DNA from: Lysobacter sp.
GTDB taxonomy: Bacteria; Pseudomonadota; Gammaproteobacteria; Xanthomonadales; Xanthomonadaceae
Direction: 5' to 3'
NCBI GenBank assembly: GCA_027306995.1
Contig: DAHUXS010000018.1
Coordinates: 73,426-137,425 of the forward strand
Length of the DNA stretch: 64,000 nt
In this document: piece by piece, positions 34,451-54,334 of the stretch
How positions within the stretch are numbered: the first letter of the stretch is position 1
How the letters are laid out: the number at the start of each line of letters is the position of its first letter
The notes under the pieces: generated by a model
The model's database searches: none
Seen by the model: the letters and a program-made list of their open reading frames with translations, nothing else
What the model was told of the DNA's origin: nothing
Program-made: the position numbers and the translations under genes

Positions 34451-34472
34451 CGGCGGGGCGAGCCAACAGGAA

Positions 34473-34577: not shown

Positions 34578-34961
34578 ATGAGCCGATCGAATACCGTCCG
34601 CGAGCTGATCAAGCGCGCCCCGATCACCACCAACCCGGCCGATCCGCTATCCGAGGCCTATCGGTTGATGCGCGAGCACGACGTCTCGCAACTGCCTGTC
34701 CTCGACGGCGACCATATCGCCGGCATCGTCGACGAATCCGACATCCTGCTGCACGTTTATGGCGATCCGAAGCGCTTCGCCGATCCGGTGTCGATCGCCA
34801 TGGTCACCCGCCTCGAGCTGACCCCTGCCGATGCCTCGCTGGAAACCCTGTTGCCGATCTTCGAGCGCGGCCATGTCGCGATGATCGCCGAGGGTGGGAA
34901 ATTGACGGGGCTGATCACAAGGGTGGATTTGCTGGATTGGTTGGGTAGTGTTGTTGCGTGA
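34578..34961 (+). CDS. stand-alone CBS-pair domain protein
   Basis: 127 aa. ..PITTNPADPLSEAYRLMREHDVSQLPVLDGDHIAGIVDESDIL.. plus a second CBS motif ..LLPIFERGHVAMIAEGGKLTGLITRVDLLDWL. Confidence 0.8.
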   Translation: MSRSNTVRELIKRAPITTNPADPLSEAYRLMREHDVSQLPVLDGDHIAGIVDESDILLHVYGDPKRFADPVSIAMVTRLELTPADASLETLLPIFERGHVAMIAEGGKLTGLITRVDLLDWLGSVVA

Positions 34962-35013
34962 AGTGACCGCTTTGAATCCAATCAGTAGTCGTGCGAAACG
35001 GAGATGGCTGGCA

Positions 35014-36282: not shown

Positions 36283-37094
36283 AGAACGTTGGAAAAGGCA
36301 TGGCACGGCGCGCGGCGGCGGCTTGGAAATACAGAGGCTTCGTTCGAAGCTCTGTGTTAAATGAATTTCGAGCCCGGTTCGCAAGAAGTCGCTTCGGGAC
36401 GTTATGGATGATCCTGCAACCCTTGGCGCAAGTTGGCGTGATGTCGCTTGTGCTCTCGCAGGTTCTTGGCGCCAAGTTGCCTGGTGTCGGAGGGCGGTAC
36501 AGCTATGCGATTTACCTCATGGCAGGGATGCTTTGCTGGAATCTTTTCTCCGAAGTGGTCATGCGCTGCCTGACGGTATTCATCGATAACGCCGCATTGT
36601 TGAGAAAAATCCAATTTCCTCGCATAACTTTGCCTTTGATCGTGGGTGGATCTGCTGTGCTCAATAACTTGGCGCTGCTGGTTGCCGTATTTGTCTTGCT
36701 TGTTGCATTTGGTGCTCCTTTTGCCTGGTCGATGCTTTGGCTGCCCGTGCTCATGATGATCACGGTTGCTCTATCGCTTGGTGTAGGCTTATTTTTCGGG
36801 GTGTTGAACGTATTCATGCGGGATATTGGTCAAGTTGTGCCAGTGGTGCTGCAATTTCTTATGTGGCTAACTCCTATCATGTACCCCGCCACTATCGTTC
36901 CACCTGCATTGGTGCGATTTCAATCCGCCAGCCCACTAGTGTGCCTGGTAAACGCGTACCACGATGTTCTCCTTTACGGGCGGGGGCCGCAACTTGGTTC
37001 TCTCTTATATGTTCTTGCTGTCGCCTTTTTTGTGCTGGCAATTGCCTTGATCATTTTTCGCCGTGCCTCTTCCGAATTGGTTGACGTCTTGTGA
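36279..37094 (+). CDS. wzm: O-antigen/polysaccharide ABC transporter permease (ABC-2 type)
   Basis: 271 aa, 6 TM. ..RFARSRFGTLWMILQPL.. is an ABC-2 signature. Coupled to wzt by a GTGA overlap. Confidence 0.9.
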   Translation: MKNVGKGMARRAAAAWKYRGFVRSSVLNEFRARFARSRFGTLWMILQPLAQVGVMSLVLSQVLGAKLPGVGGRYSYAIYLMAGMLCWNLFSEVVMRCLTVFIDNAALLRKIQFPRITLPLIVGGSAVLNNLALLVAVFVLLVAFGAPFAWSMLWLPVLMMITVALSLGVGLFFGVLNVFMRDIGQVVPVVLQFLMWLTPIMYPATIVPPALVRFQSASPLVCLVNAYHDVLLYGRGPQLGSLLYVLAVAFFVLAIALIIFRRASSELVDVL

Positions 37095-38326
37095 GCAACG
37101 TCATTCTTCTCGCGGAAAACATTGGCAAGGCTTATTCGAGCTATCGAAGCGAATTGCAACGCATCGCGAGTTGGTTCGGAATCCGCGCGGGCGATCCCCA
37201 GCGCAAATGGATTCTTAGGAATATCAGCTTCCGTCTGCATCGAGGCGAGGCCGTCGGTATTGTTGGGCAGAACGGCGCCGGTAAGAGCACCTTGCTCAAG
37301 GTGCTCACTGGAACGGCCGTAGCGACAGAAGGCCTTGTGCATCGGCAGGGTCACATAGCTGCCCTGCTTGAACTTGGCTTGGGATTCAACCAGGAACTGA
37401 CGGGTCGGGCAAACGCCACTCATTCCGCCGGGCTAATGGGCGTGCCCATGAACCAAATCGACCAACTCGTTACTGAAGTGGAAGAGTTTGCCGAGATTGG
37501 AGAGTACTTTGATGAGCCTCTGCGAACCTATTCCAGCGGCATGCAAATGAGGCTGGCTTTCTCTGTTGCAACGGCCAAGCGTCCGGAATTGTTGATCATC
37601 GACGAGGCGTTGGCGGTCGGCGACACCTATTTCGTACACAAGAGTTTCCAGCGGATCCGTGAGTTCCGCGAGCAAGGAACTGCGCTCCTGTTTGTGTCCC
37701 ACGATCCCACCGCAGTAAAGGCACTCTGCGACAGGGCGATACTGCTTGATAGCGGCAAAATTGCGCTTGATGGTGAGCCGGCAGAAGTATTGGATCTCTA
37801 TAACGCCATGGTTGCGGAAAAGGAAAATCGCACGATCAAGACGGAACGCAGGAATGCAGTAGTGGCGACGGAGTCTGGCACCGGAGAAGCGGCCATCGAG
37901 AGTGCCGTAATGCTGGATTTGGCGGGCGATCCGGTGGAGTTCGTTGCCGTTGGGGATGAGGTCGCTATTCGGGTAGTGGTCCGGATTGTTGCTCCCATTC
38001 CAGCGCTGACGCTTGGATACATGATTCGAGATCGCCTCGGGCAGCCGGTTTACGGAACAAATACCGCGTATACCGATCAGTCTGTCGAGAATCTTGGTGT
38101 TGGTGACATAGTCGAATACATGATCCGTTTCCCCGTTGCATTCGGGGCTGGAAGCTATTCTGTTTCCATTGCTTTGCATAGTGCCGAGACCCATCTGGCG
38201 AGCAATTATCAATGGCGTGATTACGCAATCATGTTCAATGTGGTGAACATCAGGTTTCCTTCGTTCGTCGGGTTGGCATTTGCACCGTCACTGATTTCAA
38301 TCGAGCATAAGAAGGCGATTTTGTGA
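37091..38326 (+). CDS. wzt: O-antigen ABC transporter ATP-binding protein with C-terminal Wzt_C-type glycan-binding domain
   Basis: Walker A GQNGAGKST, signature YSSGMQMRL, Walker B LLIIDEAL. About 155 extra C-terminal residues form the glycan-binding domain (..TLGYMIRDRLGQPVYGTN..GAGSYSVSIAL..YQWRDYAIMFNV..). Confidence 0.92.
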   Translation: MSNVILLAENIGKAYSSYRSELQRIASWFGIRAGDPQRKWILRNISFRLHRGEAVGIVGQNGAGKSTLLKVLTGTAVATEGLVHRQGHIAALLELGLGFNQELTGRANATHSAGLMGVPMNQIDQLVTEVEEFAEIGEYFDEPLRTYSSGMQMRLAFSVATAKRPELLIIDEALAVGDTYFVHKSFQRIREFREQGTALLFVSHDPTAVKALCDRAILLDSGKIALDGEPAEVLDLYNAMVAEKENRTIKTERRNAVVATESGTGEAAIESAVMLDLAGDPVEFVAVGDEVAIRVVVRIVAPIPALTLGYMIRDRLGQPVYGTNTAYTDQSVENLGVGDIVEYMIRFPVAFGAGSYSVSIALHSAETHLASNYQWRDYAIMFNVVNIRFPSFVGLAFAPSLISIEHKKAIL

Positions 38327-39965
38327 TGCGCGAGAAAAGTGCACAGGAAATTGTTTCCGAAGTGAGGAGCCGGCTGGCGTCGATCAACTTGGGTGCGCGC
38401 GCGTCCGTGGATGGGGTAATGGCGTGGTGGCCAGGGGTGAACTCCACGATTGAATATAAGGACAGTTATACGGTCGGAGACTTTTTACGGTATTCCGACA
38501 GTGTCTTGGTCGAGGCTGCTTACCGTTGCATCCTGAAGCGTCCTCCGGATCCTGAGGGCTTGGCTCACCATGCGGCCAAACTCAGGTCTGGGGAGACCGA
38601 TGTGATCGATCTGCTTGCTGGATTTCGATGGTCGCCCGAAGGGGAGGTCCATAGAGTTCACATCGATGGATTGCTTCTGCCTACCAAATTGAGGCAGTGG
38701 GGCAAGCTGCCCCTGCTCGGTCGCGTCATCCGTTGGGGGCATGGCTTGTACCGGCTGGGTAGTGTCGATCGACGAGCAAGCGCGAGCGCCGCTCGTCAAG
38801 CTTATGAATTCAAGGAGCTTGGCGATCATCTGAACAGGTTGGTCGCGCAGATTTCAAGCCGGCTTGCAGCAAATGCCGAACTGTCCATGTCGGCCGAGGC
38901 CCATGCGAGTCGGGCCATAAGCAATATAGAGCGCACCGATCAAGCGATAAATGATGTTGAAGAAGCGTTCGTTGCAAGGTCCCATGCAGCGGAACTGCAG
39001 ATCCAGCAAGCGAATGCCGAGACGACTGCTTTAAGGTCCATGATTGCGAATTTGGAAAAAGATCTCGTACATGGAAAGAAACTTGCTGGTGCGGTAGCTG
39101 ATGAGTTGCGAAAGCATGAAGACAACGCAGCACGATTGGGAGCTGATGTTGTTTTCTTGTCAAGTCGCCATGAGGCTTTCGCGCGGGAACTCTTGGGGTT
39201 CCGCCAGCTCGCAACTGAGGTTGAAGGCGCACGGGCTATTCTCGAGCGCCACAAGCGCGAACAAGATGCCGCCGCAGAAGCGGAAAGACGCCTCGATTCC
39301 CTGTATGTCGAATTCGAGAGCAAGTTCAGGGGAGACAGCGCGTTGTTGCGCACTAGGATGTTGCCTTACATCGACAGCCTCAAGGAAGCCGGAGTACTGG
39401 ATTCCGGATTGCCCGTGCTGGATGTGGCGTGCGGCAATGGCGAATGGCTGCAAATTCTTCGGGAGCACGAAATTGCTGCGTGCGGAGTAGATTCGAATGG
39501 GACGTTCGTTGGCCTCTGCAAGTCGAAGGGACTCGATGTTCATGCAATGGATGCCTTGGAGTTCCTGAAGCGTCAACCCGAATCGGTTTATTCTGCCGTG
39601 ACCTCGATGCATTTGGTCGAGCACCTAGCGTTGGCTGATCTGGTGGCACTGTTGGATGAGGCGCACCGCACCTTGCAGCCGGGTGGACTGCTAATCCTCG
39701 AGACTCCCAACCCGGAGAATTTCATGGTGAGCAGCATCGATTTTTACAATGATCCTACGCATCGGAATCCGATTCCACCCAACACCTTGAAATGGATGGT
39801 TGAAGCCAGGGGGTTCAAGCAAGCGAGAATTGAGCGCTTGACCGCTGGGCGCGATTGGGGGGCACCGGAGTTGCTTGATCCAGCATTGCCCGGAGCAAAC
39901 TCGATCAATCAGCTCCTAGATCGCGCTCGCGCCGCACCGGATTACGCGGTCATCGGAGTCAAGAT

Positions 39966-39969
<4 letters not shown>
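38326..39969 (+). CDS. DUF4214 + long coiled-coil + class I SAM-dependent methyltransferase (putative O-antigen chain-terminating methyltransferase)
   Basis: N-terminal ..YRCILKRPPDPEGLAHHAAKLRSGE.. (DUF4214-like). About 170 aa of heptad-like helical sequence. C-terminal ..YVEFESKFRG..VLDVACGNGEWL..LQPGGLLILETPNPEN. The start is either the ATG at 38326 or the GTG at 38323. Confidence 0.8.
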
Positions 39970-41833
<1,864 letters not shown>

Positions 41834-41849
41834 TCTGCGGAGCCAATAG

Positions 41850-44800
41850 ATGATCCGGATTGCCCTCGACCTGCAGGCGGGACAAACTGAGTCCCGGCAT
41901 CGCGGGATTGGCCGCTACAGCCTGGATCTGATGCAGCATGTAATTCGCGAAACGCTCCCCTCGGGCGGCCACGAGCTGGCATTCGGGATTGATGGCACCT
42001 ATGGCGACTCGGCACGGGAAATGGAATCATTCATCCGCGCCAATGCCGGCGACAAGGCACAAACCAGTCGATACTTTTATGCGGGCGCGCGCTACCCGCA
42101 TGGTCACCCGGAAGACAGATTGCGCCCCATGGCGCGAGAAATCGTTCGCGACCATTACCAGCGCCTAGGGGCAGACGTAGTCCACGTCAACAGTCTGTTT
42201 GAGGGTTTTGTCGAGCACGCGACCGGCGTGGCCGGAGTGGCTGATGTCGAATCCGCCATCACATCGGTCACGATGTACGACTTGATTCCACTCGTTTTCG
42301 CCGATCACTACCTACGTAACGAGGAATACGCTGCGTGGTATCGGCGCGCGCTCGCCGATCTGCAGCGTTTCGACTTACTGCTATGCATTTCGGAAGCCAC
42401 CCGGCGCGACGTGGTGAACCTTCTCGGTATCCCGCATTTCCGGACTGCTGTCATCCATGCTGGTGTGTCCGGGATGTTCCAGCCAGTACCGAATGCCCAA
42501 GCGATGTATCGCGACTTTTTGCGTGGCTATGGAATCCAGCGTCGATTTGTTCTCTATACAGGCAATGGTGACTTCCGCAAGAATCTTCCTTTTGCGATTA
42601 AGGCATTTTCAAGAATCAGCCCGGATGATCGACAAGGGGTGCAACTGGTATTCAACCAAGTGGAGCATGAGGAGAACTTGTGCGCGCTCGCATCTCGGGA
42701 AGGACTCACCCCGAACGATTTCGTGATTACCGGGAAAGTTCCGGATCAAGATCTGGTCAAATTATTGCAATCGTGCGATGCGTTCTTTTTTCCGTCGCTT
42801 TATGAAGGTTTCGGCCTTCCCGTCGTCGAGGCCATGGCATGCGGTGCTCCTGTGCTTGCTGCGGCAAATTCAAGTCTGGAAGAAATCGTCCAGCGCGGGG
42901 ATGCATTGTTCGATGCGACAAATGTCGACGAAGCTGCGGCTGGATTGACCAAGGTGTTGCAAGATCGGGACTTTAGCCATTCGCTGTCCGAGTGGGGCAA
43001 GCGCCACGCGCGGCAATTCACATGGGAGAACTCGGCAAAGCTGTCTTTGACGGCGTGGGAGCAGGCGGTAGAGCGCCGGCGGGCGCAGCACAATTCGCGG
43101 CGCTTCCACAAACAGCGGCAACGCATTGCGGTAGTAACGCCCTTACCGTCAGAAGCTACGGGGATTGCAGGATATGCGGCGCTTGTATTGCCATCACTGG
43201 CGTCCCGCTTCGATCTCGAGATATTCACGACAGCGGAAATTGCGAGGGTCCCCGAATATCTCAAGGCATATCCAACCTATAGCTGGCATTTATTTGATGC
43301 ACGCGCAGGCGAATTCGATGCCATCGTGTATCAATTTGGAAACTCGCCTTTCCACATGCACATGTTTGAATTGCTGGACAAACACCCGGGTGTGGTCGTC
43401 ATGCATGATGCTTACCTGAGTTCGATACTCGCCTACATGGATTCTGCCCACCCAGGTCTTTTCGCCAAGGAGCTTGGGTACTCACACGGACGGTCCGCCA
43501 TTGCATGCCTTGAAAAGGATGGTGTAGCAGCCGCCAAGTTGAAATTCCCGACTTCGCGTCGCGTCATCGAACGAGCGGACGCACTTATCGTGCATAGCGA
43601 TCATTCTGTGGATGTTCTTTCGGAGTTTTTCCCGCTTGCGGCGCGGCCGTCCATTTTTCGCGCGCCGATGCCACTGCATCCTGCCAGCCGGGAAGGCGCG
43701 GCGCGTCGACGTCAATCCGCCCGTGACCTTCTGGGGATTTCAGAGCGCGAACTTCTGGTCGTTTCCTTTGGATTCCTGGCCGATACGAAACTCAATGATC
43801 TTTTTCTGGAAGCTGCATCAATCCTTCCGGAGCGATTGCATTCGCGCGTCAAGATCGTTTTTGTGGGGGAAAACGAAGGCTCGGACTACGGTGCGCGCAT
43901 ACGCACGATGATCGCCGAGAGCCCGATTCAGGCGCGAATCACCGGGTTTGTCGATGATGAAACGTATTCGACCTATCTAGACGCCGCCGACTGTGCTGTC
44001 CAGTTGCGGGCCAGCAGTCGTGGTGAAACGTCCAAGGCGGTTTATGACTGCATGGCTGCGGGTATTCCCACGATTGTGAACGACTACGCGAGTTTTTCCG
44101 AAATCGACTCCGGCGCAGTAATCAAGGTTGAGCAAAGACCAACAGTTACCGGGCTTGCCAAAGCGATTGAGAACCTATTGATGGATCCTGTCGAGCGATC
44201 GTGTATTTCGGATGCTGCCCGGCAGTGCATTGAGCGTGAGCACGATCCCGACCTCACAGCTGCGGTCTATCGGGCGGCCGTGGATGCCGCCATGGCGGCG
44301 AGAAGCGCTAAAAATGCCTCCAGTCTGATTGAATCTATGGAGCAATGGTATCGCGGCCGGGAGCGGGACGCGGCCATCGAGCTTCCCGCCATCGCGCATG
44401 CACTGTCGCGCGAAGATTCGGCGAATGGCGTCCCACAAATCGTACTGGATCTTAGTGAAGTCATTGATCAGGACTATGGAACTGGTATTCATCGCGTTGT
44501 ACGTAATTTCGCACGAGAGCTGATGCTCTCCGAACAACCGACGCTGTGGACATGCAGGGCTATCGCGCATGCTCCTGATGGAGTCATTCGAAACGCCGAA
44601 GCACACGTGCCGAATCTTCTCGGACTGCCTGAAATGGAGCCTGTGCGCCGATGGGCAGCGGGGGACATTTTCTTTATGCTGGATTCTGCTTGGGAATCCC
44701 CAGAACGCTTTAACGCAACCATTAAGGCTGTCCATGATGCAGGCGGTCGAGTAGGAACCTTTCTCCACGATTTGATTCCTCTGCGATACCCGCAATATTG

Positions 44801-45572
44801 CGTTGACTATATGCCAATGGTTTTCAGGCGTTGGTTGGAATATGCAGTGTTAAATAGCGACCTGATCGTTTGCAACTCCAAGGCGACGGCAGACGATTTA
44901 CGCGCTTGGATTAAAGAGACTGACATGGAGCAGGTAACATCTCCGTGTATCGAGGTTGTGCAGCTTGGTTGTGATTTACGAGAGATTGCTGATGACATCC
45001 CCGTTAGTAAGCATGTAAAGAGCGCTATAGGGGAGCGGCCCGGAGCATTTATGATGGTCGGCACAATAGAGCCGCGAAAAGGTTATGGCACTGTGCTGGA
45101 CGCTTTTGATCTTATCTGGAACTCAGGTGTAAATACCAGTCTGGTGATTTTCGGGAAACGGGGATGGAACACTGAAAGCATCTGCGACCGTATTTTGAAG
45201 CATGAGGAATTTGGGAAACGTTTGTTTTGGTTTGAAGATGCCAGTGATATAGACCTGACTCATGCCTATCGAAATGCGGCATGCCTGATTCAAGCATCTT
45301 ACTGCGAGGGCTTTGGTCTACCGATTGTAGAGGCCGCACAATGGCATACCTCCTTAATCTTGTCCGATATTCCGGTGTTTAAGGAACTGGCCGGGGAAAG
45401 AGCTCGCTACTTTACTCCTGGTGATTCAGAAGCTCTATTTCGACTTCTAACTGAAGACCATCCCAACGAAGAGAAAAACACGCTCGAGTTTAACTGGTCA
45501 TGGCAAGCTGCCGCAGGCAGGCTTAAAAATGTTCTTCGCGAAAAATCGTCCCGTCAAATATGGAACCATTAG
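41850..45572 (+). CDS. 1240-aa multi-module glycosyltransferase (three GT-B/GT4-like modules), putative O-antigen polymerising enzyme
   Basis: Three separate GT-B C-terminal signatures: ..FPSLYEGFGLPVVEAMACGAPV.., ..LRASSRGETSKAVYDCMAAGIPTIV.., ..QASYCEGFGLPIVEAAQWHTSL.. Confidence 0.85.
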   Translation: MIRIALDLQAGQTESRHRGIGRYSLDLMQHVIRETLPSGGHELAFGIDGTYGDSAREMESFIRANAGDKAQTSRYFYAGARYPHGHPEDRLRPMAREIVRDHYQRLGADVVHVNSLFEGFVEHATGVAGVADVESAITSVTMYDLIPLVFADHYLRNEEYAAWYRRALADLQRFDLLLCISEATRRDVVNLLGIPHFRTAVIHAGVSGMFQPVPNAQAMYRDFLRGYGIQRRFVLYTGNGDFRKNLPFAIKAFSRISPDDRQGVQLVFNQVEHEENLCALASREGLTPNDFVITGKVPDQDLVKLLQSCDAFFFPSLYEGFGLPVVEAMACGAPVLAAANSSLEEIVQRGDALFDATNVDEAAAGLTKVLQDRDFSHSLSEWGKRHARQFTWENSAKLSLTAWEQAVERRRAQHNSRRFHKQRQRIAVVTPLPSEATGIAGYAALVLPSLASRFDLEIFTTAEIARVPEYLKAYPTYSWHLFDARAGEFDAIVYQFGNSPFHMHMFELLDKHPGVVVMHDAYLSSILAYMDSAHPGLFAKELGYSHGRSAIACLEKDGVAAAKLKFPTSRRVIERADALIVHSDHSVDVLSEFFPLAARPSIFRAPMPLHPASREGAARRRQSARDLLGISERELLVVSFGFLADTKLNDLFLEAASILPERLHSRVKIVFVGENEGSDYGARIRTMIAESPIQARITGFVDDETYSTYLDAADCAVQLRASSRGETSKAVYDCMAAGIPTIVNDYASFSEIDSGAVIKVEQRPTVTGLAKAIENLLMDPVERSCISDAARQCIEREHDPDLTAAVYRAAVDAAMAARSAKNASSLIESMEQWYRGRERDAAIELPAIAHALSREDSANGVPQIVLDLSEVIDQDYGTGIHRVVRNFARELMLSEQPTLWTCRAIAHAPDGVIRNAEAHVPNLLGLPEMEPVRRWAAGDIFFMLDSAWESPERFNATIKAVHDAGGRVGTFLHDLIPLRYPQYCVDYMPMVFRRWLEYAVLNSDLIVCNSKATADDLRAWIKETDMEQVTSPCIEVVQLGCDLREIADDIPVSKHVKSAIGERPGAFMMVGTIEPRKGYGTVLDAFDLIWNSGVNTSLVIFGKRGWNTESICDRILKHEEFGKRLFWFEDASDIDLTHAYRNAACLIQASYCEGFGLPIVEAAQWHTSLILSDIPVFKELAGERARYFTPGDSEALFRLLTEDHPNEEKNTLEFNWSWQAAAGRLKNVLREKSSRQIWNH

Positions 45573-45631
45573 GCGCGCACACTAAGTGATGACGCAATGC
45601 CTTCCTTGAAAAATATCATGGAAAAACTTTT

Positions 45632-46372
45632 GTGAAAGAAATTCCTAGCTTGGAAAATTCAGTTTCGTTTCTCACATCGCATTGGGGTGTATGTGAGTTA
45701 ATAAGTCGGGCGGAAGAATTTCATCTGCAGTTGATTCACCGGGCGCGAATACTTATGGTCAATCGTTTACTGCCGCCTGCTGCGAGAATCTTGGATCTTG
45801 GAGGGGCCAATGCGCCGTTGTACCATATGGGATATCAGCATCTCTTCCAGGAACTCGTAATGGTTGACCTTCCGAAGGAAGATCGCCATGAGATGTATAA
45901 GGATATCGATATATCGGTTGATGCCCCGGGGCGGGTGAGCATTCATTACAGCGATATGACGCATCTGCCTATGCTTTCTGACGAATCCTTTGATCTGATA
46001 TGGTCAGGTCAATCCATTGAACATGTCGACCTGCACGGGGGGGTTAACATGTGTAAAGAGGCATTTAGATTACTGAAACGGGGGGGGCATTTTTGCTTGG
46101 ATACCCCCAATCGGGAGCTTACAAAAATCCATACCAGTGATTGGCATGGAGGATTTATTCATCCAGAGCATAAGCACGAGTACACCAATAATGAATTGCG
46201 ATTGTTATTGGAGAAGACCGGATTCGGAATTAAGGAAAATATGGGTGTTTGTGAGATGCCCAAAACAGTAGAAACAGGCAAGTTTCATTATACGGACTTT
46301 GTAGTAGGCAATCCGTTGACCAGTAAGCCTGAAAGTGCCTATTGTATTTACTTTGATTGTGTACGCCCTTGA
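45632..46372 (+). CDS. class I SAM-dependent methyltransferase
   Basis: GTG start. ..ARILDLGGANAP.. (motif I), ..FDLIWSGQSIEHV.., ..LLKRGGHFCLDTPN.. Very AT-rich codon usage. Confidence 0.72.
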   Translation: MKEIPSLENSVSFLTSHWGVCELISRAEEFHLQLIHRARILMVNRLLPPAARILDLGGANAPLYHMGYQHLFQELVMVDLPKEDRHEMYKDIDISVDAPGRVSIHYSDMTHLPMLSDESFDLIWSGQSIEHVDLHGGVNMCKEAFRLLKRGGHFCLDTPNRELTKIHTSDWHGGFIHPEHKHEYTNNELRLLLEKTGFGIKENMGVCEMPKTVETGKFHYTDFVVGNPLTSKPESAYCIYFDCVRP

Positions 46373-46438
46373 GTGGGCTTTCAGGCTGAAATCATTAGAG
46401 CGCGACGTAACTTGCAGAGACTTATTCTATGGCAGAAC

Positions 46439-46461
46439 CCGCGCTAGCTAGAGTAGCGCGG
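46439..46461. terminator. hairpin at the convergence point of the two island operons
   Basis: ccgcgcta-gctagag-tagcgcgg, 8-bp perfect stem. No clear T-tract. Confidence 0.35.
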
Positions 46462-46481
46462 AATTCGCATGATCGATCAGA

Positions 46482-47036
46482 TTAAAGGGGGCCAATCACA
46501 ATAGGGGAGTCTCCAGCATCTGTGTACCAATGCACGCCTTCCTGAACGGCTGCCACTCTGAGCTTGCGCTCTTTCGTTCGCGCATCATTTGCAGGAATGT
46601 TTACATCGACCTCGGCAGTCGCACCCGGTTGAATGAGTGGAAGAGCTGCACGCACGAAATCTACAACTGCTCCGGGGCCAGTAACAGTTCCGTCGTTGCC
46701 GAGGATTTGTACCCCGAGATTTACAGGAAATTTCCCTGCCCCCTTAATCGGCTGCTTGCCGGCGTTCGTAACACTTATCTTCAAGACGCGGAACTTCCCG
46801 TCTGCAGAAGTCTGCAAGTCACCTTGCTGAGCCACTAGTGCCAAATGAAAGTCGGCTGCGGGAATCGCCGCGTTGACACCTTCTGGATCAATCGGTGGTG
46901 TATTTTGCTGCTGCGCTTGTTTTTTTTGTGACGCGTCAGCACCAGTCACGGATGGGGTGTTTGCCTTATCACAAGCGCCAAGTGCCATGCATAGCGTGGC
47001 AACGACGCAGGCAGTAGTAAAATTTGATTGCTTCAT
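46482..47036 (-). CDS. lipoprotein with Ig-like beta-sandwich domain
   Basis: Lipobox ..LCMALGAC|DK. Gln-rich linker. Domain ..FRVLKISVTNAGKQPI..PVNLGVQIL..LPLIQPGATAEVDVNIPA..KLRVAAVQEGVHWY.. Confidence 0.65.
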   Translation of the reverse strand: MKQSNFTTACVVATLCMALGACDKANTPSVTGADASQKKQAQQQNTPPIDPEGVNAAIPAADFHLALVAQQGDLQTSADGKFRVLKISVTNAGKQPIKGAGKFPVNLGVQILGNDGTVTGPGAVVDFVRAALPLIQPGATAEVDVNIPANDARTKERKLRVAAVQEGVHWYTDAGDSPIVIGPL

Positions 47037-47159
47037 GCCGTTGTGCCTCTCCGATACGGTAATGTCAACATAAAAATACGCCCAGGTCCGCTTTGCGACC
47101 TAGGTTCCAGTTTACCTCAAACAGTCGAAGAACAGTGGCTAGTGTAGTTCTGCCCTAGC

Positions 47160-48008
47160 TCAACGGAATGTGAGTTTGGTCAGCCCGATACCAAGTAATC
47201 GGCCATCCGGTGAGATCCCAAGCTGAGAGGGAGACATCGGGTGGTCTAAATTGAAACTAATTTCGATAACTCCGTCACGCTCTTTGAGCTCATTCACGGA
47301 AATTGTTATGACCATATTCGACGGAATATTATTCGGCTTTGCCACGATTGGTGATCGATCATGGCCATTAATGCTAGGGATTATTGTGAGAGCTTCGTGG
47401 CTGCCTGCAAGAAACGCGGTGTAATCAATGTCCACTATTAATGGACCTAATACATCGGGGGCTTTGAATCTGATGTACGCAGTCGATGAAGTTGACCATG
47501 CCCCCCATTTCTCGGGGGTCGCCCAAGTTTCATCCAAAAATTGCTTGAATGAAGGGTTGCTCGAAGGAAGATAGATCTCTCCCCTTGCCGCAATTACCAT
47601 CATTTCATCAATAGCTTGGGGGGACACTAAAAAAGAGGCATGCGGTTCTGACGAGAAGCGCGATGCGAAAAGACTCAACACTTGGCTGGCCGAACTTTCA
47701 GACATGTTGCAAAGACTACGGGAGTATAGGTGGGCTTCTGTCCCTGGCCCCAAGAACATTGCTTTTCTGCAGTGAGGCCCAAGAATAATGGAGGGACGGA
47801 TAATAGGGACTTCTCCCAGGCCAGAATATCGCTCAAAAAAAACCTCTTCTGGGGGATCGTAAATCGATGGGGCCAGCGTATATATGATTTTCGCGGCTGG
47901 CGATGGCTCAGTATAGATTTGTGGCTTGGACGGCCAATATTCGATTGAATTCCAAATTGCGGATACAAGAAAAAGAGCGCTCGCAGAAAAGAGTAAAGTT
48001 TTACTCAT
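47160..48008 (-). CDS. N-terminally membrane-anchored periplasmic protein, partner of the upstream GT-C-like protein
   Basis: MSKTLLFSASALFLVSAIW (one TM), then a soluble domain ending ..PSQLGISPDGRLLGIGLTKLTFR. ATGAGTAA 8-nt overlap with the upstream gene. Confidence 0.6.
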   Translation of the reverse strand: MSKTLLFSASALFLVSAIWNSIEYWPSKPQIYTEPSPAAKIIYTLAPSIYDPPEEVFFERYSGLGEVPIIRPSIILGPHCRKAMFLGPGTEAHLYSRSLCNMSESSASQVLSLFASRFSSEPHASFLVSPQAIDEMMVIAARGEIYLPSSNPSFKQFLDETWATPEKWGAWSTSSTAYIRFKAPDVLGPLIVDIDYTAFLAGSHEALTIIPSINGHDRSPIVAKPNNIPSNMVITISVNELKERDGVIEISFNLDHPMSPSQLGISPDGRLLGIGLTKLTFR

Positions 48009-49116
48009 GACGAGCTCCAAGCGCGCGCTGAATCAAGAGCCGCAGCGGAAAATAGAAGACCGGGATATACCACAACGCATATCTGGACACGTATACGGTA
48101 GCGCCGGAGTTCATGTTCTCACTTGCGCCGTGCGCATATAACGTAGCCCCAAGATATGTAATTACAAGAAGCGCAACTTGAGTGTCGATTTTTTTTAATT
48201 CTTCTTTGTTTTTGAATAGAACGTAAAAAGAGCTAAGCAGAATTAGGATGCCGACCGGCCAATTCGGAAGCAATCCAATGTCAGGATCAAAAATGTAATA
48301 CAGGCCGTTAAAATGGCCCTTAAGATTCGCCCCTCCAGCAAGTAGCTGGGGGGTCAAAACTCCATAACGACTCATATAGTAGATGGGATGCAGCAACACG
48401 ATACCTGCACTAGCTACGAGGCATATTAACTCCAGCAGAGATATGGTGCGCGCCTTGCATGATGCAAACAAGGCAAAAACCCAGCATGCTCCCGCCGGCA
48501 GCGCAAAACTGATGTTCTGGGTGCTGACAATGCTCAACAATAACGCGGCTAAAGACCATTTTTTCTGGGTGGCAGCTGCAACCGCGCTAATTGTGAGCGT
48601 AACGGTCCACCATTCCGTATGCACCTTATTGATAAACCAAAAAGTGGGCGAGAACGCGACGAGAACAAATGCAGTGATCAATCCTGATTTGCCATGCAAC
48701 TTCCAGCAGGCTGCCAACATGAAGCTTAGCAAAGCTGAATGGAGTAGGAGAAATGCTGCATGAATATGCCCTGGAAAGGCCAGTTCAAAAACGGAAGCAG
48801 CAAGAGGGTATGCCCAGAAATGATTGAAGTCGGCTGTGTTGCCTCGTCGTAACGCAGGGAACTTATTTCTTAATTGTTCTTCGGGCTCCAGTCCAGAAAC
48901 TGAGTTGCTGCTTACGAAATCGCCGTAAGAGGCCCAAGAGTCAGCATTCATATAAGGCTTGTGGGTTTTTGCCCACGCAATTTCCATTGCATAGTATTCA
49001 GAGCCATCACCGACGTTGACAGCTCTGAAGTGATGCGCACAGGCATACGTAAGCATGAATGCCGAAAGCACCAATATGGCAAACTTAGACGGGGGGAAAA
49101 ATCGCATGGCTTTCAT
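48001..49116 (-). CDS. polytopic membrane protein, GT-C-fold glycosyltransferase-like
   Basis: 371 aa, about 10 TM. The first loop carries ..VGDGSEYYAMEIAWAKTH.., which resembles the ArnT/PMT DExRYAEIARE-type loop. It sits in a GtrA/GT2 context. Confidence 0.55.
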   Translation of the reverse strand: MKAMRFFPPSKFAILVLSAFMLTYACAHHFRAVNVGDGSEYYAMEIAWAKTHKPYMNADSWASYGDFVSSNSVSGLEPEEQLRNKFPALRRGNTADFNHFWAYPLAASVFELAFPGHIHAAFLLLHSALLSFMLAACWKLHGKSGLITAFVLVAFSPTFWFINKVHTEWWTVTLTISAVAAATQKKWSLAALLLSIVSTQNISFALPAGACWVFALFASCKARTISLLELICLVASAGIVLLHPIYYMSRYGVLTPQLLAGGANLKGHFNGLYYIFDPDIGLLPNWPVGILILLSSFYVLFKNKEELKKIDTQVALLVITYLGATLYAHGASENMNSGATVYVSRYALWYIPVFYFPLRLLIQRALGARHE

Positions 49117-50441
49117 GCGTGACTCAGAATGCGCCCCAATTTTCGACCTTCTTTAACAGCATAATTGGTTCCTCGATCCTCCGGATAGACTTGAGCCATG
49201 CTCGTCAGGAAGACGTTCGGTAGAGGTGTCGAATTGCCAGGAACCAAGGTGGAATAGTGGCGCTCAGCAATGGGTTGTGCAAATTCTGCTTTCCACACAT
49301 GGGCATCCAGTATCCAGGACTTCTCAAAATCGGGGAACATCTTTTTCAGATGGGGTAATGAGAAATCAATGAGTTCCTGGTCGCTCATTTGATACATCTG
49401 GTGATCTGTAGGGAGGTATTTGGATAAATAAACAATGTGCCGTCCTCCGTAGGAGCTCGGCGGCTCGAAGTTGGTATGCTCGATCACCCCGACATATGGA
49501 AATCCGGGATCATTTACGTTAAGCCAATATGTGTCCGACAAGCTTCTGTCGAGGGATAAAACCAGGCAGACATTAGCGAGATACCGAATGCGTCGAAGCC
49601 TATCTAGGAACTCTGATGGAGCAACTTGTTGCAACAAATTGGCTGAAATGGGGAATGCAGTCGACAGGACTACGTTGTCTGCCTCAATGATCTCGCCATT
49701 CGCCAGTAGAATGCCTGTTGCCAGGCCATTTTCAGCCGCAACAGAAGACGCCGTGCTAGAAAGCAAGATAGTTCCACCCTGATTCCGAATCGCCTCGGCA
49801 AGACGCTCAGCTAAAGCTGCGAAACCACCTTTGTAGTACGCAAGGACCTCATCACCGGAACTGCTCCTGCTGCCGCCGCGGAGGACAAGTTTTTTCCAGA
49901 ACCAAACAGCGGAAACATCGTCTGCCACTGTCCCGAACTTTCCAACCAAAAGGGGGTCCCAGACAACGTCATATGCGCGTTGGCCACAAAGCTTTATCAG
50001 CCACTCTTTGGCGGTCAGTCCTTCCAGCTTCTTCCAGTCCTTGACTCTTCGGGCACGGAGCACAGCTAGCCCAAGGCGAATTCTGTCGACCATGGGGAGC
50101 GCTGAAAAGCGAAGCAAATCTAGGGGGGTGCTTAGCCGAAAAAACTGATTGGCATAGTACATTCCTGTTCGAGTTGGTCGGAGCAGAACGTTATCTTTGA
50201 CTCCAAGCTCTTCAATTATCTCCATGATCGCAACATCATTGTTGAACCAGTGGTGATAGAACTTTTCCAAGGTCTCGTCTTCGACCTTGAAGCCGCCTGC
50301 GAGTCCTCCAACCTCAGAATCGGCTTCGACAAGCGCAACAGATTTTCCCGCAAGTGTTAATTCATATGCGACAGCAAGCCCGGCAAAGCCACCGCCAACG
50401 ATAACTGTATGAAATTTACTTGCAATTGAATTGACTGGCAT
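49113..50441 (-). CDS. FAD/NAD(P)-binding oxidoreductase (amine-oxidase / phytoene-desaturase / HemY-like fold)
   Basis: N-terminal dinucleotide motif ..VIVGGGFAGLAVAYELTLAGKSVALVEADSEVGGLAG.. 442 aa. ATGA overlap with the GT-C-like gene. Confidence 0.85.
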   Translation of the reverse strand: MPVNSIASKFHTVIVGGGFAGLAVAYELTLAGKSVALVEADSEVGGLAGGFKVEDETLEKFYHHWFNNDVAIMEIIEELGVKDNVLLRPTRTGMYYANQFFRLSTPLDLLRFSALPMVDRIRLGLAVLRARRVKDWKKLEGLTAKEWLIKLCGQRAYDVVWDPLLVGKFGTVADDVSAVWFWKKLVLRGGSRSSSGDEVLAYYKGGFAALAERLAEAIRNQGGTILLSSTASSVAAENGLATGILLANGEIIEADNVVLSTAFPISANLLQQVAPSEFLDRLRRIRYLANVCLVLSLDRSLSDTYWLNVNDPGFPYVGVIEHTNFEPPSSYGGRHIVYLSKYLPTDHQMYQMSDQELIDFSLPHLKKMFPDFEKSWILDAHVWKAEFAQPIAERHYSTLVPGNSTPLPNVFLTSMAQVYPEDRGTNYAVKEGRKLGRILSHA

Positions 50442-50443
50442 GT

Positions 50444-50857
50444 TTACACCCGGGGAGCATGAGGCCGGAAGGTTATGGCCTTATTGATGGAAAATTGGAG
50501 AATTAAAACGAAGACAAGAGTGGCAAGCTTGGCTGCTATGGGGTGAATAGAGAAAATGCCAACGAGCACCCATAGTAGTGCGCTCGACAACAAATAGCCT
50601 AGTAGCGCAGTAGCGAGGAACAGCCCGAGTCGCTGGAGGGTGCGGTCGTAGGTCTTGAAAGTAAAATGCCTGTTTAATAAGAAGCTGACCAATGTACCCG
50701 ACGCGTAGCTTGCGAAGTTGGCAGGCTGATAGCCGATGCTTCGTTCAACAAGAAGTGAATAAATGGTCAAATCGATCAAGACACCAGTGCCGCCGCAAAC
50801 GGCGTACATGATGAATTGTTGAAGTTGCGCCCGGTTAGATAGAAGTTTTCGAATCAT
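50444..50857 (-). CDS. GtrA-family membrane protein (lipid-linked sugar translocation-associated)
   Basis: 4 TM. ..QFIMYAVCGGTGVLIDLTIYSLLV.. and ..FSINKAITFR are GtrA-like. The start is uncertain (50857 or 50917). Confidence 0.8.
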   Translation of the reverse strand: MIRKLLSNRAQLQQFIMYAVCGGTGVLIDLTIYSLLVERSIGYQPANFASYASGTLVSFLLNRHFTFKTYDRTLQRLGLFLATALLGYLLSSALLWVLVGIFSIHPIAAKLATLVFVLILQFSINKAITFRPHAPRV

Positions 50858-51821
50858 TCGAGGGGTTATTCGTATTGATTGTTGATGCAACGATAGTTTG
50901 CTGGCGCCCATTGACATGCAGCAATACTCGCCCGAGATATTCGCCGATGATCCCGATCGAAAGTAACTGAATTCCCCCTAGTATCATTGTGGAAACCATC
51001 AGTGACGACCAACCTACGGGCATGGCGTTTATCGTGAATCTTTGGATGATAAAGGCGATTGCTGCCAGAAAACCCAACCCAGAAAATGCAAGGCCGATTA
51101 GAGAGGCTATTCTAAGTGGGGCGACAGAAAAGCCCGTCGCCATTTTCAACCACAGGGAGATTGATTTTCGAAGACCGTAGCCAGATCGACCATCAGCGCG
51201 CTCATGATGATCAATTTTGACCGTCGCGATCTTGTTTGTTGTATTCAAGATCAGGCCGTCTAGGTAGACGTTCGGTCCCTCGAAGTGAATCAATTCATCT
51301 CTGACCCCCTTACAAATAGCTTTGAAAGGCGATAGATAAAGCCCCTTCGGCTTGCCGAGTAGTATCCCCGCAATTAAGTCGTTGAACTTGCTACCTATGC
51401 GTTTCCATAGCGCGTGCTGCTTGGAATGGAACTCTCCGTAGCTCACATCGTAGCCCTTCGACAGGGGCGCTAACAAAGCAGCGATGTCATCAGGGGAGTG
51501 TTGTAGATCATCATCCATCATGACGATCCTTTGCCCGGAACAGTATCTGAGACCGCACAGGATTGCATTGTGTTGCCCTGCGTTTTTTCTCAAATCGATG
51601 GCTTTCAACCAGGAATAGGATTTTGCAAGCTCTGCGAGCACTGCCCATGAGTTGTCGGGACTGCAGTCGTTGACCATGACGACTTCAAATTGGCCGTCAT
51701 GTAGTTTGGACAGTACGGCTTCAAGTCGTTTGACAAGCGCAGGAAGTATCGTTTGACTGCGATAAACAGGAATGACTACTGAAATTTCAGGCTTCACCGT
51801 ATTGCCCGTAGTATCTGTCAA
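50835..51821 (-). CDS. GT2 polyprenyl-phosphate glycosyltransferase (GtrB/ArnC/DPM1-like)
   Basis: ..ISVVIPVYRS.., ..VVMVNDCSPDNS.., ..IVMMDDDLQHSPDDI.., plus two C-terminal TM helices. The start is uncertain (TTG at 51821 or GTG at 51797). Confidence 0.88.
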   Translation of the reverse strand: MTDTTGNTVKPEISVVIPVYRSQTILPALVKRLEAVLSKLHDGQFEVVMVNDCSPDNSWAVLAELAKSYSWLKAIDLRKNAGQHNAILCGLRYCSGQRIVMMDDDLQHSPDDIAALLAPLSKGYDVSYGEFHSKQHALWKRIGSKFNDLIAGILLGKPKGLYLSPFKAICKGVRDELIHFEGPNVYLDGLILNTTNKIATVKIDHHERADGRSGYGLRKSISLWLKMATGFSVAPLRIASLIGLAFSGLGFLAAIAFIIQRFTINAMPVGWSSLMVSTMILGGIQLLSIGIIGEYLGRVLLHVNGRQQTIVASTINTNNPSNDSKTSI

Positions 51822-52485
51822 GGATACGTAGAGTGTAACCTTGGGTCAGGTCGATATTATTTCGGCCTGCCAATTTCAGCATGATCGAAGGGTCTGGAAT
51901 TGTCCCGCCGCCTCTATCCAACAATTCGTATTGAGCAGGCAAATTCAGGATTTGTTCCATCATCTTGACTAGCTCCAGCATTGATACCGTTTCCGGGGGG
52001 GCGACTTCATATAGGTATTGTTGTTGTTGGCCGGATTGAAGCAAGGCAGAAGCAATAGTTGCGACATCTTCTACATCGACAATGCATCGGAGTGCATTTT
52101 TCCAAACGCTAAATTTCGTGCCGTGAGTGATGTTATTGGCAATAAAGTTTGTCAGGGTATTTGGGTTTGATGTTTTTCCGACAACTTGAGGCAAGCGCAA
52201 GATCAGGGGGTTGGGGTGCGTTGCCACAAATTTTTCCATTTGCAGCTTATGCGTGACGTAAGTGCTTTTTGCTCGATCCGGATCCGAGATGCTGCAGGTG
52301 CTAAAATAAACAAAAGGTCCTTGGCTGGTCTTTAGGTGCGCAGCAAGTAGAGTAGCTTCGCGCTCAAATTCTACTGAACTCGTTTCTTGCGAGTTTGATA
52401 CCCCTGAAGCGAATATCGTCCCCGGACCATCAAAGCGTCTGGCCCTTAGTGCCGTTGCCAACATTCCGCTGCCTACGAAATCCAC
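51787..52485 (-). CDS. extended-SDR (NAD-dependent epimerase/reductase-like) protein, 5' end apparently frameshifted or degraded
   Basis: The YxxxK catalytic motif is present (STYVTHK). The ORF begins VDFVGSGMLATAL, so the first beta-strand and first Gly of the Rossmann motif are missing. An upstream out-of-frame stretch encodes KTLLTGFLSGF. Confidence 0.55.
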   Translation of the reverse strand: MDFVGSGMLATALRARRFDGPGTIFASGVSNSQETSSVEFEREATLLAAHLKTSQGPFVYFSTCSISDPDRAKSTYVTHKLQMEKFVATHPNPLILRLPQVVGKTSNPNTLTNFIANNITHGTKFSVWKNALRCIVDVEDVATIASALLQSGQQQQYLYEVAPPETVSMLELVKMMEQILNLPAQYELLDRGGGTIPDPSIMLKLAGRNNIDLTQGYTLRILDRYYGQYGEA

Positions 52486-52610
52486 TCAAAAATCCCGTCA
52501 ATAGTGTTTTGTGAGCAAACCAACGGTAAAGAGGCCGTGGTTTGGGTGGACGCAATCCGCTTTGGATGAGCCTGCGATGCGTCTGGATACAGCAAGAGCG
52601 CAGCTTGCGA

Positions 52611-54301: not shown

Positions 54302-54334
54302 TGAGCAAGGACCTATGGAACGTAGCCCGCCATT

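Follow-up and report, generated by a model that had tools for sequence, protein, structure and literature searches.

A Gtr-like glycosylation module with a conserved, uncharacterised flavoprotein in a putative D-rhamnan O-antigen locus of Lysobacter

The window examined in this work is a 64,000-nucleotide stretch of the genome of Lysobacter sp. (GenBank assembly GCA_027306995.1, contig DAHUXS010000018.1, positions 73,426 to 137,425). Between positions 52485 and 47160, its minus strand carries a string of genes that encode, in this order, a short protein resembling the short-chain dehydrogenases/reductases (SDRs), a family 2 glycosyltransferase (GT2) of the ArnC/GtrB type, a GtrA-family protein, a 442-residue protein of the flavin adenine dinucleotide (FAD)-binding type (hereafter the flavoprotein), and a membrane protein with the GT-C glycosyltransferase fold. 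Successive genes adjoin or overlap each other, and only the gene for a predicted lipoprotein is set apart, by a gap of 123 nt ahead of it; all seven minus-strand open reading frames (ORFs) listed in an initial annotation of this DNA are present. That annotation regarded them as a Gtr-like periplasmic glycosylation module, a view borne out by the polyprenyl-phosphate-type GT2, the GtrA protein and the GT-C-fold transferase described below. We consider the chances slightly better than even that the operon contributes the side-branch half to a D-rhamnan O-antigen locus of the ABC-transporter type, and that it encodes a Gtr-like system in which the flavoprotein tailors a lipid-linked intermediate. 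This estimate applies to the module as a whole, including the action of the flavoprotein at the lipid-linked stage, and is exclusive of the exact chemistry.

The GT2 protein (328 residues; 50835..51821, minus strand) is a polyprenyl-phosphate glycosyltransferase of the ArnC/GtrB/PgfS type, with a match to PF00535 at 3.3e-26. Over its full length it resembles the solved structures of ArnC (9hwj, 1e-41, residues 12-322) and GtrB/sll0501 (5ekp, 2.4e-34), and in NCBIfam it matches ArnC (1.6e-45) and PgfS (1.7e-41), both under the equivalog cut-offs. The motif MMDDDLQHS (with the core DDDLQH) and two C-terminal hydrophobic, transmembrane (TM) helices, already noted in the initial annotation, were recovered, and the protein combines the GT-A fold, the DxD motif and the C-terminal TM helices of the synthase of a Gtr-type system. 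Between the genes for GT2 and the flavoprotein lies that of the small membrane protein annotated as GtrA (50444..50917, minus strand; PF04138, 1.6e-22), which is the candidate flippase of such a system, and whose earlier assignment likewise stands. Its longest ORF has 157 codons, while its orthologues are called at 121-140 residues, and translation probably begins further in, at M21 or M37.

The third component is a protein of 371 residues with about ten helices (48001..49116, minus strand), which we assign to the TM catalytic part of a GT-C enzyme from an AlphaFold2 (AF2) model and a Foldseek search. It has no sequence match in Pfam, NCBIfam or the Protein Data Bank (PDB). The AF2 model, derived from 26 homologues, has a pLDDT of 85.8, and its top 20 PDB matches in Foldseek all belong to the GT-C class (best E-value 6.9e-04); they comprise AglB, ArnT, ALG12, ALG3, EmbA/B/C, AftB, PglB and STT3, together with a subunit of the GPI transamidase, GPI mannosyltransferase I and Pmt1/2. 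After the first helix, in the first periplasmic loop, the stretch G36-D37-G-S-E40-Y41-Y (G-D37-G-x-E40-Y) is invariant in 21 of the 21 homologues that cover the motif, as would be expected for a GT-C catalytic loop. The acidic residues in the first periplasmic loop that mark the GT-C component of Gtr-type systems are accordingly present, with moderate fold scores. No O-antigen ligase, Wzy polymerase or acyltransferase is described among the 50 listed Foldseek matches of the model, and Pfam gave no match to Wzy_C or Acyl_transf_3. The initial annotation had called this a 10-TM protein with a GT-C-like first loop, and had named these other three types of protein as the identities that would speak against it; on both counts the GT-C reading stands.

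In Massilia, Yersinia, Pseudomonas, Rheinheimera, Stenotrophomonas and Xanthomonas, the homologue is a single protein of about 650 residues. The 371-residue ORF aligns with residues 39-384 of the 654-residue Stenotrophomonas protein (39% identity), and residues 402-654 of the latter align with the product of the next ORF in the window (27% identity, E-value 2e-25). This second product is a TM-anchored periplasmic domain, identified by its homology to the fused protein (47160..48020, minus strand; 286 residues from TTG 48020, or 282 from ATG 48008). Its score for DUF7024 is 0.045, while fused orthologues reach 7.5e-08 and 3.1e-06. By sequence, the two ORFs are one GT-C enzyme with a DUF7024-like C-terminal domain, split in the window, and the DUF7024-like end probably serves in glycan binding. 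What the initial annotation listed as a 10-TM protein and a TM-anchored periplasmic protein thus corresponds to the two halves of what is one protein of about 650 residues in relatives. The split falls at ATGAGTAA, which overlaps with the upstream stop, and an identical split is found in the Logan assembly of run SRR10333324. In the Lysobacter soyae genome (CP080544; locus L086, 11326-13285), a 372-residue membrane part of the GT-C protein is kept and the DUF7024 part is missing. Since the membrane part stands alone in L. soyae and the split recurs in SRR10333324, the split may be tolerated.

The flavoprotein (442 residues; 49113..50441, minus strand) is the least familiar component. Pfam assigns it to Amino_oxidase (PF01593, 7e-34) and NAD_binding_8, and NCBIfam to the uncharacterised family NF005560 (PRK07233, named "hypothetical protein"), with a score of 515.9 bits (cut-off 252) in an alignment that spans residues 12-437 of its 442. 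The scores for characterised families are all under the curated cut-offs: 103.3 against 283 for HpnE (the best of them, 1.9e-29 over the full length), 41.6 against 569 for phytoene desaturase (PDS), 48.4 against 238 for the CrtI family, and 42.4 against 97.85 for protoporphyrinogen oxidase (PPOX). Judged by these cut-offs, the flavoprotein falls outside every characterised family. The best Foldseek matches of its AF2 model (pLDDT 88.8) are rice phytoene desaturase (5mog, TM-score 0.80) and protoporphyrinogen oxidases (0.75-0.80; 2ive, 0.80), followed by an uncharacterised Methanosarcina oxidoreductase and by amine and nicotine oxidases. PDS and PPOX are membrane-associated enzymes that act on lipophilic substrates. 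The Amino_oxidase match, the PDS/PPOX fold and the lack of a match to FAD_binding_4 agree with the earlier statement that this amine-oxidase-fold protein is not homologous to DprE1, the FAD oxidase of mycobacteria. We found neither a signal peptide nor a TM helix, the protein beginning with the FAD-binding beta-alpha-beta unit, and therefore place it by prediction in the cytoplasm or at the inner membrane face. The family has many invariant His, Arg, Asp, Asn, Trp and Tyr residues.

A distant similarity connects the flavoprotein with UDP-galactopyranose mutase (UGM). The family profile matches Escherichia coli UGM (1i8t) at 3.9e-10 over residues 9-216, mainly in the N-terminal half, and a second UGM-like stretch aligns LNVNDPxFPfVGVIEHTNF with INFTDANVPYTRIIEHKHF (around "VIEHTNF"). 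However, the Arg of the "YTR" stretch of UGM, the diphosphate ligand, aligns with Gly in the flavoprotein family, Pfam finds no GLF domain (PF03275), and UGM is not among the 50 best Foldseek matches, which are of the PDS, PPOX and amine oxidase types. Membership in the UGM family was rejected, as the GLF domain is absent and only the distant match is left. The literature yielded neither a characterisation of the flavoprotein family, in agreement with the initial annotation, which knew of none for the arrangement, nor an O-antigen structure that could be linked to the cassette.

The flavoprotein family is large and widespread. Out of 8000 candidates scored, 5526 were homologues; identity to the window protein is 51-62% across phyla, which include Alpha-, Beta- and Gammaproteobacteria, Cyanobacteria, Gemmatimonadota, Acidobacteriota, Bacteroidia, Nitrospirales, Chloroflexi and others. 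Members occur in Xanthomonas, Yersinia, Pseudomonas, Legionella and cyanobacteria, and one orthologue (P0014, named "MULTISPECIES: Stenotrophomonas") is present on many contigs. From a genome scan we took 80 loci, which are a sample and not a census, called and clustered their ORFs (the flavoprotein gene itself was missed in 7 high-GC loci), and counted neighbours over five genes in the 63 loci with enough flanking sequence. A polyprenyl-phosphate-type GT2 is found near the flavoprotein in 54 of the 63, a polytopic membrane protein (at least 7 TM helices and at least 330 residues) in 47, and a flippase-like protein in 41 (LPG_synthase_TM in 38, GtrA in 4), with all three together in 29. The co-occurrence called for by the initial annotation thus takes the form of tight linkage across phyla. 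Any SDR was found in 24 loci and none in 39, and a glucose-1-phosphate cytidylyltransferase in 16. The downstream polytopic proteins form many unrelated clusters, some with signatures of PMT_2, GT87, DUF2298, PTPS_related or DUF7024. A transferase that varies while GT2 and the flavoprotein remain constant recalls the pattern of constant GtrA/B and variable GtrC, and is to be expected if the flavoprotein helps to make a common donor; the unrelated GT-C clusters, taken with the 51-62% identity of the flavoproteins, fit a role in making such a donor.

Two types of module can be distinguished. In Type A, the minimal variant consists of GT2, LPG_synthase_TM, the flavoprotein and GT-C, without genes for nucleoside diphosphate (NDP)-sugar synthesis. 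A seven-gene variant, present in 15 loci, encodes an SDR of about 360 residues, a second SDR of 275-315 residues, GT2, an RfbF-like cytidylyltransferase, LPG_synthase_TM, the flavoprotein and a GT-C-like protein, in an order conserved from Alphaproteobacteria to Chloroflexi, of which we found no description in the literature. In the only seven-gene locus that was scanned against the family models, that of Yersinia frederiksenii (L055, 5291-13284), the CDP-glucose 4,6-dehydratase and the cytidylyltransferase are recognised at the equivalog level; the others are L004, L014, L021, L054, L056, L061, L065, L066, L067, L072, L073, L079, L080 and L081. Type B is the type of the window, with short SDR, GT2, GtrA, flavoprotein and GT-C/DUF7024, and is attached to ABC-transporter O-antigen loci.

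Several individual loci deserve mention. In a cyanobacterial metagenome-assembled genome (MAG) of the Thermosynechococcaceae (L007, 8870-11326), one ORF of 818 codons contains an LPG_synthase_TM domain (residues 33-356) fused in frame to the flavoprotein (378-811). Genes of the UbiA family adjoin the flavoprotein gene in three loci (L083, 11286-12533; L042, 11374-12261; L046, 11385-12272), overlapping with it by 8 nt in L083, and DUF2298 and PMT_2 membrane proteins are encoded close by. Sugar C-methyltransferases (Methyltransf_13/14) are encoded near GT2, flavoprotein and GT-C in four loci, from three cyanobacteria and a Legionellales MAG (L008, 13024-14232; L016, 14671-15879; L022, 14737-15945; L075, 19469-20707), where FkbM-type and class I methyltransferases are found too.

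The first gene of the operon encodes the short SDR-like protein (232 residues with a GTG start; 51787..52485, minus strand). Its Pfam match to Epimerase (PF01370, 2.3e-06) covers profile positions 88-230 only, and the match to its nearest solved relative, the putative nucleotide-sugar dehydratase 8v4g (9e-06), is confined to the C-terminal half. It carries the N-terminal glycine motif F-V-G-S-G-M-L-A, S62/T63 and Y76-x-x-x-K80, and among the aligned orthologues Gly5, Gly7 and Ala10 (G5-x-G7-x-x-A10), Ser62, Thr63, Tyr76 and Lys80 are invariant. The catalytic Tyr stands at residue 76 instead of the usual position near 150, a shift of about 80 residues towards the N-terminus relative to normal extended SDRs. 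Although the gene is immediately preceded by a TGA and ..KTLLTGFLSGF can be read in another frame, an N-terminal truncation or frameshift was excluded by the equal starts of the orthologues in six taxa and by the length of the family. The orthologues from L. soyae, Stenotrophomonas, Massilia, a Legionellales MAG and a Sphingomonadaceae MAG have 227-231 residues, align from end to end and share the start M-I-(I/V)-G-N-G-L-x-A. A profile search returned 2650 relatives, of which the 120 listed span 225-265 residues, nearly all of them 226-233. By these comparisons, the window protein is a full-length member of a family of 226-233 residues, an abbreviated extended SDR and not a classical SDR like DprE2, the mycobacterial reductase. 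The YxxxK motif of the initial annotation is there (Y76/K80), while the role of a DprE2-type reductase partner does not suit a shortened extended SDR.

The genomic context of the short-SDR family was sampled in three members. Two of them (L087 and L088) share the cassette of the window, in the order wzm, wzt, methyltransferase, large GT4, SDR, GT2, GtrA, flavoprotein, GT-C, and the third (L089) is without the flavoprotein. In L089, a metagenome contig, the short-SDR gene (7001-7681) lies in a Wzy-dependent polysaccharide cluster near a 4,6-dehydratase of the Polysacc_synt_2 family, together with an initiating transferase (Glycos_transf_4), a deacetylase, GT2 and GT4 genes and Wzy_C; flavoprotein, GtrA and GT-C genes were not found in this cluster. 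Because the family occurs without the flavoprotein beside a Polysacc_synt_2 dehydratase, and because in the other module type a second SDR comes after one of the dehydratase type, the simplest reading of the short SDR is that it produces the donor sugar as an NDP-4-keto-6-deoxy-sugar 4-reductase, rather than serving as the partner of an oxidase. If it reduces the 4-keto sugar made by Gmd or RmlB, the branch sugar would be a 6-deoxyhexose different from the D-rhamnose that forms the backbone. A natural knock-out of this gene is seen in Xanthomonas campestris pv. trichodesmae (CP022263; L084, 6758-8409), where an insertion sequence (DDE_Tnp_1) cuts the short SDR to 188 residues, and GT2, GtrA, the flavoprotein and a fused GT-C protein of 679 residues are all intact despite the loss.

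The setting of the operon provides the likely acceptor. The neighbouring plus-strand genes (34948..46372), assigned by Pfam, form the backbone half of the cassette and encode a GT4, Wzm, Wzt with a Wzt_C domain, a 548-residue methyltransferase of the chain-terminator type, Rmd, Gmd, a triple-GT4 protein of 1240 residues, and a separate methyltransferase of 246 residues. By content this is the gene set for an ABC-transporter-dependent D-rhamnan O-antigen, and from this context the D-rhamnan is the likely acceptor of the side sugar. To the right of the operon lie etfB/etfA, the genes for a mannose-1-phosphate guanylyltransferase/isomerase and a phosphomannomutase, and rmlBACD. The cassette of short SDR, GT2, GtrA, flavoprotein and GT-C recurs in Stenotrophomonas, L. 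soyae, X. campestris pv. trichodesmae and two metagenome contigs, where, as in the window, the order includes GT-C/DUF7024 and lies within ABC-transporter, gmd/rmd-type O-antigen loci, and it recurs also in Massilia; the arrangement of the window locus itself is found again in the first three. Such recurrence across taxa indicates that the arrangement is more than chance. The closest relatives of the module proteins are those of L. soyae (79% identity for the flavoprotein, 48% for the GT-C part). Across about 34-52.5 kb (34000-52500) the GC content falls to 48-57% from about 65% in the flanks, with a minimum of 48-49% over the side-branch operon, and this drop over the whole cassette suggests horizontal acquisition.

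Some smaller features of these loci are recorded here. The branch sugar may carry a methyl group, since both Stenotrophomonas and X. campestris pv. trichodesmae have a second methyltransferase gene after that of the GT-C protein. In L. soyae (L086), rmlB-rmlA-rmlC are followed by CoA-transferase genes, and rmlD was not found in the fetched stretch. In the window, the listed ORF of 565 codons at 52611-54308 (minus strand) is an over-extended frame, in which EtfA is confined to the C-terminal part, and the upstream part overlaps etfB (53555-54301) in a different frame. The predicted lipoprotein (184 residues, lipobox LGAC; 46482..47036, minus strand) has a weak match to DUF4232 only. A terminator-like hairpin is present at 47104-47081, in the 123-nt gap ahead of its gene; the promoter and terminator scan as a whole was not above chance, with fewer sites than in shuffled sequence, and says little on the ends of the operon. 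As a component of the module the lipoprotein was rejected, being without similarity to the 181-residue ORF at the equal position in L. soyae. It probably lies outside the module, contrary to the initial annotation, which had counted it in.

By all features that can be tested on sequence, the module belongs to the Gtr-type three-component class, and we propose the following course of events. The short SDR would reduce an NDP-4-keto-6-deoxyhexose, provided by the Gmd and RmlB of the window, to the 6-deoxyhexose donor, and the GT2, a polyprenyl-phosphate glycosyltransferase by family, would move this sugar to undecaprenyl phosphate at the inner membrane face. Ahead of export, the flavoprotein would modify this polyprenyl-phosphate-linked product rather than the nucleotide sugar, and GtrA, as expected from its family, would flip the donor. 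In the periplasm the split enzyme, which has the GT-C fold and consists of the 371-residue and 286-residue parts, would transfer the sugar to the exported D-rhamnan, an acceptor suggested by the locus. The DUF7024 part would perhaps bind the polymer, like the carbohydrate-binding module of Citrobacter youngae ORF12.

The circumstantial arguments make a polyprenyl-phosphate-linked intermediate, rather than a nucleotide sugar, the most likely substrate of the flavoprotein, because minimal modules carry no NDP-sugar genes, because the nucleotide differs by module type (CDP in the Yersinia operon, not in the window) while the flavoprotein is conserved, because UbiA genes adjoin the flavoprotein gene in three loci, because a flippase-like protein is fused to the flavoprotein in the cyanobacterial MAG, and because the enzymes of the closest folds, PDS and PPOX, are generally known to act on lipophilic substrates. 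As to the chemistry, FAD-dependent dehydrogenation of a sugar hydroxyl is the single most likely reaction, although taken by itself it is still doubtful; the dehydrogenase character of most relatives and the C-methyltransferase genes beside the module in cyanobacteria and the Legionellales MAG speak for it. A pyranose-furanose mutase and a modification of the polyprenyl chain follow in this order, close behind.

Several points weigh against this interpretation. The role of the flavoprotein family and the identity of the sugar are predictions from sequence and models. The GT-C TM-scores (TMq) are moderate, mostly 0.35-0.51 with one PglB chain at 0.24, and the E-values are marginal. The split of the GT-C gene may stem from a recent frameshift, in which case the module would be inactive in the window strain. 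The SDR is short of some 80-90 residues of the Rossmann domain, which leaves its NAD(P) binding only putative. The flippase-flavoprotein fusion is the sole case seen and comes from a MAG, and in the Bacteroidia loci the pair of GT2 and flavoprotein stands without a flippase or GT-C nearby. As far as can be read from the gene content, a keto product, if made, would have no processing enzyme encoded in most loci, and the flavin-dependent sugar oxidases known to us have the VAO and GMC folds and not that of the flavoprotein.

The initial annotation had gone further and proposed that the flavoprotein oxidises a hydroxyl of the undecaprenyl-phosphate-linked sugar to a ketone, which the adjacent SDR would reduce from the other face, as a non-orthologous epimerisation of the DprE1/DprE2 type. 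The epimerisation or deoxygenation of a lipid-linked sugar is possible, and the two genes share one cassette in at least 8 loci (the window, L048, L075 and L084-L088). The S/T-Y-K triad of the SDR is invariant, the flavoprotein is predicted to be cytoplasmic, and its fold is typical of membrane-peripheral dehydrogenases. Precedents at the lipid level are DprE1/DprE2 and a single SDR, ORF13, which acts on undecaprenyl-phosphate-linked ribofuranose (PMC11127046). However, the pairing of oxidase and reductase is weakened by the scarcity of any SDR around the flavoprotein (24 of 63 loci), by the short-SDR member that does without the flavoprotein in L089, and by the type of the SDR, which is an abbreviated extended one, of the nucleotide-sugar kind, and not a classical one like DprE2. 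Moreover, the seven-gene operon already needs its SDR as a 4-ketoreductase, to follow the SDR of the dehydratase type, which in the Yersinia locus is a CDP-glucose 4,6-dehydratase. On balance, we regard this scheme as improbable.

A slightly less probable explanation makes the flavoprotein a redox-neutral mutase that converts a pyranose into a furanose, on a lipid-linked or a nucleotide sugar, so that the branch would be a 6-deoxyhexofuranose, or galactofuranose in the minimal modules. UGM is, to our knowledge, the only carbohydrate enzyme in the superfamily of the flavoprotein, and the profile match to 1i8t with its second similar stretch points in the same direction. A self-contained isomerase would explain the many loci without a partner redox enzyme, and in both module types a dehydratase and a small SDR stand alongside the flavoprotein, which mirrors the Fcf1/Fcf2 pair of E. 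coli O52. Lateral alpha-D-fucofuranose is reportedly present on D-rhamnans of Pseudomonas syringae. On the other hand, the family lacks the GLF domain, has Gly for the Arg of "YTR" and leaves UGM outside its 50 best fold matches, and with classical UGM genes being common, a second mutase family would need a reason.

Less probable still is that the flavoprotein saturates, desaturates or isomerises the polyprenyl chain of the carrier, and so marks a dedicated donor pool for the GT-C enzymes. Its best family match (HpnE) and best fold (PDS) both act on isoprenoid chains, its conservation is independent of the accompanying sugar pathway, and UbiA genes adjoin it in three loci. However, both scores are far under the family cut-offs, the invariant polar and aromatic residues equally suit a polar sugar-phosphate site, we know of no modified undecaprenyl carrier in Gtr-type systems, and no benefit of such a modification can be named. 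Finally, it is quite improbable that the flavoprotein acts upstream on the nucleotide sugar in an otherwise ordinary GtrABC-type module, as its soluble, cytoplasmic nature and the NDP-sugar genes alongside it in about a quarter of the loci might suggest, since the nucleotide would have to differ by module type (CDP in the Yersinia-type operon, no cytidylyltransferase in the window), minimal modules have no NDP-sugar genes, the gene is placed between those of the flippase and GT-C, and both the flippase-flavoprotein fusion and the adjoining UbiA genes point to the lipid stage.

Returning to the preferred reading, a flavoprotein that tailors a lipid-linked intermediate, its extension to the whole family, in which the NF005560 flavoproteins are a widespread new class of enzymes acting on polyprenyl-phosphate-linked sugars, as lipid-level oxidases/epimerases or as pyranose-furanose mutases, has in our estimate somewhat less than an even chance of being correct. 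If true, NF005560 would add a fourth, conserved component to the periplasmic glycosylation systems of Proteobacteria, Cyanobacteria, Gemmatimonadota, Acidobacteriota and others, and its product a donor sugar so far unrecognised, possibly an unusual branch sugar of the O-antigens of Xanthomonas, Stenotrophomonas or Pseudomonas. Gtr-like three-component systems are a main source of diversity in O-antigens and cell-wall glycans, and the enzymes known to tailor a sugar at the lipid-linked stage are few (ArnD, NaxD, DprE1/DprE2 and the C. youngae SDR). What is new here is a widespread Gtr-like system with a conserved, uncharacterised flavoprotein step, from a family of thousands of members. To solve its reaction would tell what a large "hypothetical" family does, probably show by which route a particular O-antigen branch sugar arises, add a new type of enzyme to glycoengineering, and explain serotype-determining cassettes in plant and human pathogens.

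Among known systems, GtrA/GtrB/GtrC of Shigella and Salmonella phages and CsbB/GtcA/YfhO of Gram-positive bacteria likewise encode a GT2, a GtrA-family protein and a GT-C enzyme together, with the synthase and flippase conserved and the GT-C variable. In comparison with them, the window adds two cytoplasmic enzymes, the flavoprotein and the short SDR. Furthermore, most relatives of the flavoprotein module have a flippase of the LPG_synthase_TM/UPF0104 type instead of GtrA, and the GT-C of the window comes from a family without a Pfam model, has a DUF7024 domain and is split in two genes.

In the DprE1/DprE2 system of mycobacteria, a polyprenyl-phosphate-linked sugar undergoes redox tailoring, and Rv3789 (of the GtrA family) and the Emb/Aft GT-C enzymes are encoded nearby. 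In the three-component pentofuranose system of C. youngae O2 (ORF15/ORF14/ORF12), the SDR epimerase ORF13 acts at the lipid level and ORF12 carries a carbohydrate-binding module (PMC11127046). In both, the synthase is a UbiA-type phosphoribosyltransferase that uses phosphoribosyl pyrophosphate, whereas the window has a GT2, and none of the cassette ORFs scanned (34.9-52.5 kb, Pfam) matched a UbiA-type phosphoribosyltransferase. DprE1 has the VAO/PCMH fold, in contrast to the amine-oxidase fold of the flavoprotein, which has no FAD_binding_4 match; DprE2 is a classical SDR obligately paired with its oxidase, whereas an SDR is dispensable in most flavoprotein loci. With fold, SDR type and synthase all different, the module is, on sequence grounds, not a member of the DprE1/DprE2 system.

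In the dTDP-D-fucofuranose pathway of E. coli O52, RmlA and RmlB are followed by the reductase Fcf1 and the mutase Fcf2, and the set of a 4,6-dehydratase, a small SDR and a flavoprotein recurs in both module types. However, Fcf2 is a UGM homologue with a GLF domain that acts on the nucleotide sugar, whereas the window flavoprotein has no GLF domain and is nearer to PDS and PPOX. With PDS, PPOX and HpnE it has in common the overall fold of three domains, at a TM-score of about 0.8, and the FAD motif GxGxxG near the N-terminus, but the sequence scores are far under the cut-offs and the context is glycan assembly, not the synthesis of carotenoids, haem or hopanoids. In the lipopolysaccharide loci of X. 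citri (306) and X. oryzae (BXO8), a "phytoene desaturase" gene has been listed beside genes for an NAD epimerase, GtrA, UbiA and oxidoreductases/dehydrogenases (PMC2238763; bioRxiv 2022.03.02.482478). Its neighbours there include UbiA and DprE1/DprE2-like genes, and a GT2 is absent. Kelly et al. mentioned "more elaborate systems" in Xanthomonas, which they left unanalysed.

A parallel in logic is offered by the Arn (ArnC-ArnD-ArnE/F-ArnT), Francisella FlmF2/NaxD/FlmK and Bordetella LgmABC systems, in which the product of an ArnC-type enzyme is likewise tailored at the cytoplasmic face before flipping and transfer by a GT-C enzyme, and the GT2 of the window is most similar to the solved ArnC. 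Their tailoring enzyme is a deformylase or deacetylase and their acceptor is lipid A, whereas the window has a flavoprotein and its acceptor is most likely the O-antigen. With this respect, the proposed module would resemble the Arn, Francisella Flm/NaxD and mycobacterial arabinose pathways in placing a tailoring step between those of the synthase and the flippase.

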